Of a stretch of 64,000 nt of DNA, positions 37,105-53,942 are shown one piece after another; position 1 is the stretch's first letter, and every line of letters starts with the position of its first letter. The stretch comes from an uncultured Candidatus Saccharibacteria bacterium. Lineage in GTDB: Bacteria; Patescibacteriota; Minisyncoccia; Phycocordibacterales; JAACPR01. The notes beneath the pieces are model-generated. The model saw nothing but the letters and a program-made list of their open reading frames with translations, ran no database searches and had not been told where the DNA came from. The stretch covers positions 82,811-146,810 of the forward strand of contig CAZIEY010000001.1 in NCBI GenBank assembly GCA_964538855.1, in the 5' to 3' direction. The translations under genes and the position numbers were made by a program.

Positions 37105-37333
37105 TGCGGGTCCACCACTCTCGGTCACGAATCACTAAGTAAAATGCTTCGCCTCGACCATATTTCGATAGATGATGACGGCTCGCATTTTACAAAGTGT
37201 TCGCGACCCCGGCTCGGCCATCCCAGATTTCGCTGCGCTCCATACTGGGACCCTTGGCCTGCGCCTTTCGAATCCTGGTGGACCTCGCAACAAAAATCGC
37301 CGCCTCCTCTCGGAGACGGCTCATTTTGTTGTG
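37105..37333 (-). repeat. tRNA-trailing GC-rich element ending in 13-14-nt direct copy of tRNA-Trp 3' end; contains inverted copy of tRNA T-arm
   Basis: Blocks GCCGAGCCGGGGTCGCGAACACTT (rc of 37195-37218) and ACTTAGTGATTCGTGACCGAG (rc of 37119-37140) are shared with the Leu element; 37105-37117 tgcgggtccacca duplicates 37332-37344; 37267-37284 ttcgaatcctggtggacc is the inverted complement of the tRNA 3' region. Confidence 0.65.
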
Positions 37334-37405
37334 CGGGTCCACCAGGATTCGAACCTGGAACCTCAGTTTTGGAGACCGATGTTTTACCATTGAAACTATA
37401 GACCC
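37334..37405 (-). tRNA. tRNA-Trp (anticodon CCA)
   Basis: GGGTCTATAGTTTCAATGGTAAAACATCGGTCTCCAAAACTGAGG…TTCGAATCCTGGTGGACCCG; CCA not encoded. Confidence 0.85.
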
Positions 37406-37432: not shown

Positions 37433-37515
37433 GCAAATAAAAAGTACTCAAATTTTGAAGTCCTCGGGTCGCTCTGCTCAACCAGACATTCAAAATTTGA
37501 GTACTTTTTATTTGC
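37433..37515. repeat. AT-rich terminal-inverted-repeat element E1 (27-bp perfect IR, 29-nt GC-rich core)
   Basis: gcaaataaaaagtactcaaattttgaa … ttcaaaatttgagtactttttatttgc; core GTCCTCGGGTCGC is shared with E3. Confidence 0.6.
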
Positions 37516-41936: not shown

Positions 41937-42006
41937 TTTCTCGCGCCACAGCACCGTTCATCACCGGTCTTCACGACCGAACCGAGGACTTCGATCCTCG
42001 TAAAAA

Positions 42007-51254: not shown

Positions 51255-51297
51255 GTTATTTTTTGCACTTCGTATGGAATAAGTCTACTACAAAAAT

Positions 51298-51431
51298 AAA
51301 TTTAAAAATACTCATTATTTTGAGCCTTTCGGAGGACGCCTGTTTTCTCCCAATTAGCGTCCGGGAACGAGCTGATTTTTCCTGATAAGGCAAAATACAG
51401 CGTGCTCAAAATAATGAGTATTTTTAAATTT
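51298..51431. repeat. AT-rich terminal-inverted-repeat element E2 (28-bp perfect IR, 78-nt core) between rpmE and prfA
   Basis: aaatttaaaaatactcattattttgagc … gctcaaaataatgagtatttttaaattt; right arm overlaps the rpmE stop codon; inner GGACGC/GCGTCC palindrome. Confidence 0.6.
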
Positions 51432-51690
51432 ATTTCTTTGTCTTAGCCTTGGACATTCGAGTCTTGAACTTCTCTACGCGACCAGCAGCATCAAGAATGT
51501 TTTCCTTGCCAGTATAGAATGGGTGTGACGCAGATGAAATTTCAATGTTATAAGCAGGATATTCCTTACCATCTGTCCATTTTTCGACTTTGTCTGTTTC
51601 AACAGTTGAATAGACCAAGAATCGCTCGCTTGATGAGTCGTCGATAAAAATCACTTTTCGGTTATTTTGTGGATGAATGTCTTTTTTCAT
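51430..51690 (-). CDS. rpmE: 50S ribosomal protein L31 (no CxxC; type B-like)
   Basis: MKKDIHPQNNRKV…HPFYTGK. Confidence 0.85.
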   Translation of the reverse strand: MKKDIHPQNNRKVIFIDDSSSERFLVYSTVETDKVEKWTDGKEYPAYNIEISSASHPFYTGKENILDAAGRVEKFKTRMSKAKTKK

Positions 51691-51738: not shown

Positions 51739-53118
51739 TTAATCGTCAACTTCTTCCAAGAAATTCAGCTGTTCTTGGAAAGTCGCAGCGTGCGACAAGA
51801 CGCTATTTGCATAACCAAGTCCAAGCGTAGCCCAAGCGCCTCCTGCATAATACCGCGCTGCTGCTTGCTGTTCTGCACTATAACCGCCCGCCGCTGCACC
51901 GAGATCTTTTACGAAAAGGCCCGTTGCCATAAAGGCGTGCTCTGGTAGCCATGGATTTGCAGCTGAAATTCCGAGCGTTGTCGCGACACGTGCCGCATAA
52001 CCGATCCACGTTGAAGGAATAAACTGTGAGGGACCCATCGCACCTCCGTACCCAACCGAAAGTGGGCACGATACAGGTGTCTGATATGGATCTAATCCAA
52101 GCGCTCGAGTAATCGTCAAGAATGGAGTCACATCTCGATCCGGTTTCATCACTTTGGCAAACGGTGTACCAGTATTTTTACCGATTCCCGCGCCCGTTTC
52201 AGTATTCGATAGGTAACACTGACCGACATTAACCCCGAGATTTGATTCTTGTTTCAAAATACCCAAAATAAATGCGGCGCGCACCCCGGTAAATTTCGAA
52301 GCTTTATTCGCATATTTTACCGCATCTCCAAACGAAATCCCCTCCTGATCGCGCAACTTAAAAAGCTGAGCCCTGATTGATGCCGCCTTGGCATTTTTCT
52401 GTTGGATGACAGTTTGATAATTTGCCTCGGTTTGTTTACTGATCGATAGAAGCCCTGCTTTTTCCTGCTTTTTAATAGTCACCGTACGCTTATCTTGTTC
52501 AATTTCTGCTTTCACATCTTGCTCCTTATTTTGTTTAATTTGTAACTCTTGCTTCTCTTTCTCGTTTTGTTCTTGAATAACTTTCACTTCATCGATTAGG
52601 TCATTCAGCTGTCTCTCTACTACAGTGAACTCATCAAATTCCACGAAAAAATCTGACAAGGTTTCGTTGCCCAGCAAAATTTCTGGCAGAGACATATTGT
52701 CTGCCTCGTTCGTCTTGCGCATTAGATCAATGAGGTTTTTTTTACTACGATTAATTTTTTCTTCAAGTTGGTTAATAGTCTGCTCTTTTAATTCAATTCC
52801 AGACATGAGATTTTTGATTTCGATATTTTTCTTTTGAATAACAAGCTCGGCTTGTTTAACTTGATTTGTGAGGACAGAAATATCGCGTGAAATGGTGGCG
52901 GTTTGACTCTGTTGCTGTTTGAGAGATTCATTCAAGACACGAGCCTCTTCCTCGATTTGAGCAAGTTCTTTGCGTAGTTGAGCTTCCTGTTGCGGCGTAA
53001 GAGCAGCAAATACCTGTAAAGGCAGGATATTAAACACAAAAGCCACAAGAACGAGCATTAGTGCCGGTTTTTTAAGAATAGCAAAAATCATCTTCTTTAT
53101 TATAGCAAAAAAACTCAT
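51739..53118 (-). CDS. secreted coiled-coil protein with C-terminal lytic-transglycosylase (SLT)-like domain
   Basis: Signal peptide, ~250 aa heptad-rich region, then ILKQESN…GAMGPSQFIPSTW resembling SLT catalytic Glu and GxMQ blocks. Confidence 0.5.
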   Translation of the reverse strand: MSFFAIIKKMIFAILKKPALMLVLVAFVFNILPLQVFAALTPQQEAQLRKELAQIEEEARVLNESLKQQQSQTATISRDISVLTNQVKQAELVIQKKNIEIKNLMSGIELKEQTINQLEEKINRSKKNLIDLMRKTNEADNMSLPEILLGNETLSDFFVEFDEFTVVERQLNDLIDEVKVIQEQNEKEKQELQIKQNKEQDVKAEIEQDKRTVTIKKQEKAGLLSISKQTEANYQTVIQQKNAKAASIRAQLFKLRDQEGISFGDAVKYANKASKFTGVRAAFILGILKQESNLGVNVGQCYLSNTETGAGIGKNTGTPFAKVMKPDRDVTPFLTITRALGLDPYQTPVSCPLSVGYGGAMGPSQFIPSTWIGYAARVATTLGISAANPWLPEHAFMATGLFVKDLGAAAGGYSAEQQAAARYYAGGAWATLGLGYANSVLSHAATFQEQLNFLEEVDD

Positions 53119-53157: not shown

Positions 53158-53279
53158 AAGTAAAGCAAAACTGCTTAATTTTAAAAGTCTGGTTGAGCAT
53201 CAACACAAAACGCACGTTCTTTACAGAACGTGCGTGATGCGACCCGAGGACTTTAAAATTAAGCAGTTTTGTTTTACTT
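53158..53279. repeat. AT-rich terminal-inverted-repeat element E3 (~31-bp IR, 1 mismatch + 1 indel) immediately 3' of rplY
   Basis: aagtaaagcaaaactgcttaattttaaaagtc … gactttaaaattaagcagttttgttttactt; core ends in GCGACCCGAGGAC (reverse complement of the E1 core GTCCTCGGGTCGC) and has an inner ACGCACGTTCT/AGAACGTGCGT hairpin. Confidence 0.6.
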
Positions 53280-53942
53280 CTTGTCCTGACCTTCCGCCGC
53301 TGGAGTTCCTCCTGGCACACCTTCTTCGTCTTTCTTACCCTTCTTTTCAACTTCGATTGAAGCGAGGTCAACTGGAGCCGCCTCTTCTTCCTTCTCTTCG
53401 CGAGGTTCTTTAACGAGCGCAATCACTTCGTCAGATTTTGAAACTAATTCAACACCTTCTGGCAATTTCACATCTTTTGCTTGAATGTGCGCAGCAAAAT
53501 CCACGAGAGAAGAGATGTCTACAGTAATATTGTGTGGGAGGTTTTTAGGCATCGCTTCGATTTCGACTTCGTGCATAACTTTCATCAAAATACCACCGAG
53601 GTTTTTCACTGCAGCAGATACACCAACGAATTCGAGAGGAACGTTAACTTTGAGCTTCTTACCTTTTTCAATAACATAAAAGTCTGCGTGGAGAGGTCGC
53701 AATGACACCGCGTCAAATTGTACATCTTTTAACAATGTGTCGTGTTCTTCTGAACCAAGTTTAAGAGTAATAATTGAAGATTCACCGGCTTCTTTGTACG
53801 CTTTCAAAAATTCGACTTCGTTAATAGTAATAGGTGTAGATGCTTCTTTTGGACCGTAAAATACAGCAGGAATATTGCCGCCTTTTCGCATTTGGGCTTT
53901 ATCTGACTTTAATTCTCGTGTCTTTGCGTTTAATATCAACAT
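53274..53942 (-). CDS. rplY: 50S ribosomal protein L25 / general stress protein Ctc
   Basis: MLILNAKTRE…NIPAVFYGP…; Ctc-type C-terminal extension with acidic tail. Confidence 0.85.
   Translation of the reverse strand: MLILNAKTRELKSDKAQMRKGGNIPAVFYGPKEASTPITINEVEFLKAYKEAGESSIITLKLGSEEHDTLLKDVQFDAVSLRPLHADFYVIEKGKKLKVNVPLEFVGVSAAVKNLGGILMKVMHEVEIEAMPKNLPHNITVDISSLVDFAAHIQAKDVKLPEGVELVSKSDEVIALVKEPREEKEEEAAPVDLASIEVEKKGKKDEEGVPGGTPAAEGQDKK

Follow-up and report, generated by a model that had tools for sequence, protein, structure and literature searches.

The RPEs (Rickettsia palindromic elements), short palindromic repeats of a reduced-genome bacterium, occur as many in-frame insertions in housekeeping genes as well as between genes, and no mobilizing enzyme has been assigned to them (PMC10969869). 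Among the MITEs of Neisseria, Correia and NEMIS, Correia has a central IHF site, while the pneumococcal SPRITE, BOX and RUP repeats include a terminator-like hairpin and elements inserted in one another (PMC10969869). The element E3 described here is, with a probability that we put at about 0.7, a copy of a short, non-autonomous family of palindromic mobile elements in the Patescibacteria (CPR) that is MITE-like, and RPE-like in its behavior. This apparently undescribed family of small hairpin mobile elements is widespread in the ultra-small Patescibacteria; a literature search that included the core sequences returned only general MITE and RPE reviews and no description of it.

E3 occupies positions 53158-53279 (minus strand) of the window, by which we mean the whole 64-kb stretch of DNA analyzed. 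Its strand is defined as the one reading GTCCTCGGGTCGC...TGCTCAACCAGAC, which is the sense strand of the upstream host gene rplY (53274-53942, minus strand; L25/Ctc, 222 aa, Pfam PF01386 and PF14693). The element is a near-perfect hairpin of 122 nt and consists, on the minus strand, of a 28-nt 5' arm (AAGTAAAACAAAACTGCTTAATTTTAAA, 53252-53279), a conserved core block 1 (GTCCTCGGGTCGC, 53239-53251, required exactly by the scan pattern that gave the 121 instances listed below), the interior of a variable central hairpin termed P2 (53200-53238), a conserved core block 2 (TGCTCAACCAGAC, 53187-53199), and a 29-nt 3' arm complementary to the 5' arm (TTTTAAAATTAAGCAGTTTTGCTTTACTT, 53158-53186). The inverted arms after rplY proposed in the initial annotation are real and pair as claimed, with one mismatch (a G:T wobble on the plus strand) and one extra base (an A). 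The limits given there, 53158-53189 (32 nt) and 53249-53279 (31 nt), do enclose paired bases, but the GTC/GAC at their inner edges belongs to the core ends, and the arms proper have the shorter extent given above. The overlap of the right arm with the end of rplY was likewise found as described; the last codons lie within the arm together with the stop TAA (53274-53276, minus strand). In an inverted-repeat search the pairing of E3 reached 45 nt at 80%. The folding energies of its two strands are −63 and −67 kcal/mol, far below the average of −28 for shuffled sequences (z = −10.5 and −11.7).

The 11-bp hairpin previously noted in the core lies at 53210-53235, followed on the minus strand by TTTGTGTT, and is part of a 39-nt insert in P2 that is closed by a GCATCA/TGATGC stem. 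As RNA on the rplY sense strand, the insert is closed by GCAUCA/UGAUGC and holds the 11-bp hairpin followed by UUUGUGUU. P2 of this type is also present in two other loci (L048 and L119). At the gathering score, Rfam matched only four tRNAs in the whole window, and around E3 searches with E values up to 10 gave chance-level matches only (E ≥ 1.2). The core also has no convincing origin in a known RNA. A 9-nt likeness to the hairpin ribozyme (UCAACCAGA, seen by eye) was treated as a coincidence, the second ribozyme domain being absent, and a K-turn was rejected because there is no G.A/A.G tandem. Core block 1 (GTCCTCGGGTCG) is one base from a tRNA string spanning variable loop, T-stem and T-loop (GTCCTCGGTTCGATCCCGAG, L109 position 5564); this is probably a coincidence as well, and a tRNA origin was rejected since a matching T-stem partner is missing. 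A near-match to core block 1 at 41977-41989 of the window has no flanking arms.

A second copy of the family, E1, was identified at 37433-37515 (plus strand). It is 83 nt long, with perfect 27-bp arms around a 29-nt core, GTCCTCGGGTCGC-TC-TGCTCAACCAGAC-A, in which P2 is minimal; E3 thus equals E1 with the 39-nt insert in its central variable hairpin. E1 lies between rpmG and tRNA-Trp, both on the minus strand, and is thereby antisense to its hosts, whereas E3 is sense to rplY. The 13-mer GTCCTCGGGTCGC occurs exactly twice in the window (37460-37472, plus strand, and 53239-53251, minus strand) and adjoins an arm each time, which is the shared core motif that had been pointed out in the initial annotation. 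A second common 13-mer at the other core end, TGCTCAACCAGAC, had been missed there; it too occurs exactly twice (37475-37487, plus strand, and 53187-53199, minus strand). The split core pattern had no match in 100 shuffles. A covariance model found exactly two copies in the window, E1 with 79.8 bits and E3 with 75.4 bits, scores that are in part a product of construction as both are among the 89 copies from which the model was built. All other window scores were at or below 27 bits, with the reverse strands of E1 and E3 at 24-27 and E2 and ordinary hairpins at 14-22. With both core ends in common and these scores, the proposed homology of E1 and E3 is upheld. The 13-mer is also no unrelated common word, since complementary arms surround every listed instance whose flanks lie inside its contig. 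Replication strand was ruled out as the cause of the opposite orientation of E1 and E3, because the GC skew does not change sign between them.

The third hairpin element of the window, E2 (51294-51435, no strand assigned), is located between rpmE and prfA and has arms like those of E1 around an unrelated, structured core of 78 nt. A 14-mer from this core was absent from 118 other CPR loci, and the core was therefore rejected as a widespread family. An ORF-free region at 37115-37300, just downstream (minus strand) of tRNA-Trp and its terminator, is strongly conserved, with long invariant blocks, in two relatives, one of them distant, and carries 18 nt from the 3' end of tRNA-Trp as an inverted copy (37267-37284 versus 37336-37353). 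It is a candidate non-coding RNA; the only Rfam match nearby is a weak one to gyrA-RNA, on the terminator.

In order to determine the extent of the family, one genome per species was scanned with the pattern GTCCTCGGGTC-N(1-61)-CTCAACCAGAC, comprising 22 nt in two parts. The scan gave at least 117 loci, with 121 instances listed. Among the matches listed, all but one are labeled Patescibacteria/CPR or carry no taxon label; the labels include Parcubacteria/Paceibacteria groups, Nomura-, Adler-, Campbell- and Zambryskibacteria, Minisyncoccia and many Saccharibacteria bins, and most of the carriers are genomes labeled as of the Parcubacteria/Paceibacteria type. The sole non-CPR label in this set, Burkholderiales, belongs to a copy at the very start of a 268-kb contig (L043, JAMPXW010000002.1). 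Its AT-rich flanks resemble the flanks of L006 and L014, two copies from Nomurabacteria, and to judge by them the contig is probably chimeric or mis-binned. A phage origin was rejected, as 2.9 million viral contigs gave one match, which lacked the architecture. A public contig with identical rplY (L001, Logan SRR13208906) stops 40 nt past the gene, inside E3. This is the effect expected of a repeat or hairpin on an assembler, and elements of this family probably fragment CPR assemblies.

All listed instances with flanks inside the contig share one plan, namely a long arm, block 1, P2, block 2, one to a few unpaired bases and the complementary arm. The consensus core, GTCCTCGGGTCG ... CTCAACCAGAC, is asymmetric and split by P2, the stem of which covaries (GC/GC, GGC/GCC, CCCGC/GCGGG and others). 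The elements are ~60-125 nt in size and non-coding, with AT-rich arms of a median length of 25 bp (117 copies). Arm sequence differs among subfamilies and loci, and pairing is always kept: in the alignment of 89 non-redundant copies, 76.7% of arm cells are paired, compared with 54.9% after shuffling and 36-50% after sliding, and all four Watson-Crick pair types occur at most arm positions. An exact-pattern scan overstates the invariance of the core, and about ten more copies with one to five changes in the 22 nt were found within ~0.9 Mb of flanking DNA.

Among the matches listed, approximately 53 copies, at 31 independent sites, are located inside long ORFs of housekeeping genes, including those for IleS (two sites), LeuS, PolA, LigA, RecG, UvrA, LepA and PheT. 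No stop interrupts these in-gene copies, which are read in all three sense frames and in two antisense frames. For LigA, the element matches a segment of 25 residues that LigA of E. coli (2owo) lacks, and the extra length is accounted for by the whole stem-loop, arms included. The orthologous copies in PolA, IleS and RecG have different arms that nevertheless pair perfectly. In the PolA linker, five genomes (L053, L099, L109, L110 and L111) have an element at the same position with near-identical core, P2 and inner arms, and with unrelated outer arms that are still perfectly complementary. Simple neutral decay does not account for the arms in PolA, IleS and RecG; selection on pairing, arm-to-arm conversion or repeated insertion is needed.

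Evidence for mobility was obtained from the flanks. Searches for duplications with automatic arm ends were too noisy, and only anchoring them to a fixed terminal motif gave a usable result. Arms are identical among the copies of the TGAATTACGAAA subfamily (…TGAATTACGAAAyGCAAAAATTTAG-core-…), of which several genomes have many. Of its 35 copies, 22 stand between direct repeats that are 6 bp or longer and 17 between repeats of 7 bp or more, compared with 1.3% for repeats of at least 7 bp in permuted left/right flank pairs. These repeats stand at a fixed offset and differ in sequence from copy to copy (TATTTAA, ATATAAA, TCTTATA, ATGCTATA and others). In other subfamilies a CTYCR pentamer was present on both sides of nine copies, where 2.9 would be expected. 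No target-site duplication was seen in the flanks of E3 and E1, either by repeat search or by eye. The window has two copies of the family and the closest relative has three, while several genomes have many, among them GW2011_GWA1_40_21, Campbellbacteria RIFCSPLOWO2_02_35_12 and REEB66. In the burst genomes of the TGAATTACGAAA subfamily, decayed and nested copies were observed; such sites are found in L063 (3700-3885), L095 (660-800, 1577-1717 and 4725-4855) and L035 (150-290), and examples of decayed cores in burst genomes are GTCCTTGAGTC and CTCAAATAGAC. An autonomous partner near the copies was looked for with separated half-cores, lone terminal repeats and the Pfam content of 140 neighboring ORFs, and none emerged: in the ~0.9 Mb of flanks the first two gave only truncated, decayed or chance matches, and the 25 most frequent Pfam families of the ORFs include no transposase family.

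The presence of E1 and E3 also differs between close relatives, and mobility is likewise indicated by an exchange of cores inside shared outer arms at the rpmE/prfA locus, described below. E3 is found in the window and in L119 and L120, where rplY is 94% identical, the closest relative being GCA_964412465.1. The site is empty in L121 (rplY 87% identical), where the rplY stop is followed by the hairpin AAAAAACCGC-TATACAATT-GCGGTTTTTT and then by the same downstream sequence, TTCCAAGC…TTTGCTATAAT. E1 is shared by the window and L122, whose copy has a single arm change, and the site is empty in L123 (74% identity in miaA), where the same A and U tracts enclose a GC-rich hairpin. A simple terminator scanner missed the L121 hairpin, which has a 9-nt loop, and reported the L123 hairpin on the opposite strand only, and both were folded instead. 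The empty sites could be deletions of the center of a former element rather than sites that were never filled.

The P2 of E3 contains a terminator-like site (53200-53235, minus strand), in which an 11-bp stem (53235-53210, 6 of the 11 pairs G-C) with a GTAA loop is followed by TTTGTGTTGA (53200-53209), giving the features of an intrinsic terminator. In L048, P2 of the same type is located directly after the 5S rRNA gene. On the basis of this hairpin and its U-run, the P2 after 5S rRNA and the terminator at the empty site, the E3 copy most likely now serves as the terminator of rplY. E3 supplies the last codons and the stop of rplY and stands where a relative has a plain intrinsic terminator. 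Its outer arm (ACAAAACTGC/GCAGTTTTG) looks like the terminator of L121 and equally like arms found in other copies, and may derive from the stem of the former rplY terminator or belong to the element. The downstream gene (51739-53118, minus strand) encodes a coiled-coil protein with a weak SLT_2 match and probably starts at the second ATG, 53091. A sequence resembling an extended −10 box, TTTGCTATAAT, is located 7 nt upstream of this ATG and is conserved in three genomes, which suggests that the mRNA of this gene is leaderless or nearly so.

These observations also have to be considered in terms of a structured RNA motif selected by the host, for instance to terminate transcription, to direct RNA processing or stability or to bind a protein, which would be kept for its usefulness and not through mobility. 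The strong covariation of arms and P2, the highly conserved loop and the compensatory arm changes among the orthologous PolA copies are in agreement with such a motif, as is the frequent location of copies directly after highly expressed genes (rplY, rpmG, tuf/rpsJ, nusG/rplK and 5S rRNA). In 71 of the 90 classifiable copies listed (about 74-79%), the GTCC strand coincides with the sense strand of the host gene, which also speaks for a transcribed motif; TGA in one antisense frame accounts for only part of this sense bias. Orientation nevertheless varies, and E1 and E3 are opposite with respect to their hosts on the same replichore.

Folding of a single strand, which likewise favors such a motif, is indicated by wobble pairs in the arms. 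With one representative per cluster, mismatches on the GTCC strand comprise 63 A:C and 23 G:T, and an A:C mismatch on this strand is a G:U wobble on the opposite one. Folding of the arms only prefers the strand opposite GTCC in 58 of 76 clusters. On this strand, which reads GUCUGGUUGAG…CGACCCGAGGAC, the core forms GUCU/GGAC and GGUU/GACC helices with G.U pairs, in which a GA and a CGA bulge, 4 bp apart, interrupt an almost continuous helix, and the sole arm mismatch of E3 is G:T on the same strand. The better-folding strand is thus antisense to the host in most copies, and the mismatch asymmetry is the same in copies sense and antisense to the host, neither of which is expected of an RNA that serves its host. 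Since the count over the 31 independent host sites is 18 versus 6 (p = 0.023), we regard the strand asymmetry as suggestive and not as proven. Taken together, the mismatch asymmetry and the core helices suggest that the relevant form of the element is a folded single strand, DNA or RNA, irrespective of host transcription.

Other observations against a host-selected RNA are the copies within essential coding sequences, the target-site duplications and the plain hairpin that suffices at empty orthologous sites, and no Rfam family was matched. In addition, the cores decay at a neutral rate in the close relative and in burst genomes; the E3 copy of L119 has changes in 3 of 26 core bases, a rate near that of its arms and P2. 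We consider a motif kept only for its use to the host unlikely. With single copies decaying nearly neutrally, a core that stays constant across subfamilies with different arms is most simply explained by a requirement of propagation, in line with a mobile element.

The E1/E3 subtype might also have spread or been swapped without any transposition, only by recombination or gene conversion between AT-rich terminator hairpins, with arm-to-arm conversion keeping the palindromes perfect. In its favor, E1 and E3 are without target-site duplications, and both empty sites are terminators of A-tract, hairpin and U-tract that resemble the outer arms. The rpmE/prfA locus is also in agreement, as it has the E2 core in the window and in L121 (5378-5529), while L119 (5516-5630) has an intact E3-type core (75 bits) in reverse orientation between the same outer arms; here a core was replaced inside unchanged outer arms. 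Common arm blocks (AAAA-n-ACT...AATTTTRAA), which could provide the homology for such exchange, are found in E1, E2, E3 and this rpmE copy of L119. Recombination as the only process leaves unexplained how elements first reached new sites, their in-frame presence at 31 independent positions in unrelated genes, and the clear 7-bp duplications of the burst subfamily with the same core, and we find it quite unlikely as a full account. Given the lack of duplications, the terminator sites in relatives and the arm blocks common to E2 and the swapped copy, the spread of E1 and E3 within a mobile family may still owe something to recombination or conversion between hairpins.

A signal at the DNA level, i.e. 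an uptake sequence or a site for a chromosome-organizing protein enriched by biased uptake or selection, would fit a 22-nt word that is conserved across many genomes of one lineage, is found in both orientations and often stands at terminators, like the uptake sequences of Neisseria and Haemophilus. The Patescibacteria are in addition thought to depend on DNA import. The density is low for such a signal, with two copies in the 64 kb of the window, and the word is always within an inserted palindrome of 60-125 bp and never alone. Uptake sequences come from point mutation and not from insertion, and target-site duplications are present in the family, so this explanation is highly improbable.

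In the bulge-helix-bulge motif, which directs RNA excision, a 4-bp helix is set between two 3-nt bulges, one per strand and each 5' of the helix; its splicing endonuclease is not known from bacteria. That the elements are intervening sequences removed from RNA through such a motif, or are translationally bypassed, so that in-gene copies remain untranslated, is barely credible in spite of the two conserved bulges 4 bp apart in the folded core and the position of elements inside essential genes, because the frame is open through the element in all 53 listed in-ORF copies, which is unexpected if the element is removed, because the better-folding strand has its 2-nt and 3-nt bulges 3' of the central helix, with a handedness opposite to that of the canonical motif, and because the eight close same-strand flank cases that were candidates for split genes are all pairs of distinct genes (tuf/rpsJ, nusG/rplK, rmuC/rplU, x/recA and others).

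For the mobile family as we understand it, the core is probably a cis site for the mobilizing machinery. This putative site would be read by that machinery on a folded single strand, probably the one reading GUCUGGUUGAG...CGACCCGAGGAC, and recognition at the folded core would explain why the center, and not the termini, is constant across subfamilies. A more specific proposal, which we make tentatively and think is doubtful at present, is that the constant center is the site of a single-strand-specific enzyme of the Patescibacteria (a recombinase, an HUH-type nuclease or a reverse transcriptase) that reads it at the apex of the hairpin and not at the termini. If this is true, the family represents a new kind of mobile element, with arms that may vary without constraint or be acquired from host terminators and with copies that are tolerated, even maintained, inside essential genes. 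The tiny and supposedly streamlined genomes of the Patescibacteria would in the mobile-element reading carry a selfish hairpin across ribosomal-protein operons, where its members can replace terminators, and the same element lengthens enzymes such as IleS, LeuS, PolA, LigA and UvrA by 20-35 residues. The family is also a sharp marker of recent genome change between close relatives.

Compared with the systems in which a folded strand is known to be recognized, i.e. attC sites, REP/REPIN-RAYT and the ends of IS200/IS605, the E3 family is similar in that stems vary while structure is kept, and in that one strand is distinguished by conserved unpaired or bulged bases and by a variable terminal structure. 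Its strand asymmetry fits recognition of a single-stranded hairpin as in these systems. Target-site duplications, present in the burst subfamily, are not produced by these systems, and in the E3 family no GTTRRRY/RYYYAAC boxes, no GTAG and no adjacent integrase, RAYT or TnpA were seen. An integron attC site was rejected, the arm ends of E3 reading AAGTAAA.../...TTTACTT and its neighbors being rplY and a lytic-transglycosylase-like gene, and identity with REP/REPIN was likewise rejected on the features examined.

The similarity to the pneumococcal SPRITE, BOX and RUP repeats lies in the terminator-like hairpin within P2 of E3 and in the nested copies of the family; taxon and sequence are unrelated, and only some P2 variants are terminator-like. 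The similarity to MITEs of the Correia/NEMIS type is more extensive. The elements are shorter than ~300 bp without coding capacity, have terminal inverted repeats and, in the TGAATTACGAAA subfamily, target-site duplications, and occur in many dispersed copies with presence/absence polymorphism, and, as in Correia and NEMIS, there are co-transcribed hairpins, a putative functional site in the center and copies that can give terminators or promoters. They differ from these in the absence of a cognate insertion sequence from the ~0.9 Mb of flanking DNA searched, in an AT-rich duplication of 7 bp, and in a wobble asymmetry that points to single-strand folding. Classical MITEs conserve their termini, whereas here the center is constant and the termini are variable, the reverse of the usual MITE logic, and this suggests that a folded single strand is read by some enzyme or host factor.

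With the RPEs the family shares short palindromes in a reduced genome that are inserted in frame in unrelated housekeeping genes and between genes. It is smaller (60-125 bp versus ~150 bp), belongs to a different host taxon and has a conserved, asymmetric central core with arms that differ between subfamilies, and E3 itself is intergenic, overlapping only the last codons and the stop of rplY. The likeness is one of behavior, and as its hosts are Patescibacteria we regard the family as an analogue of the RPEs and not as a member. From RPEs, Correia MITEs and SPRITE/BOX/RUP repeats alike, the E3 family is set apart by its taxon, by a constant asymmetric center with variable ends, and by its strand asymmetry.
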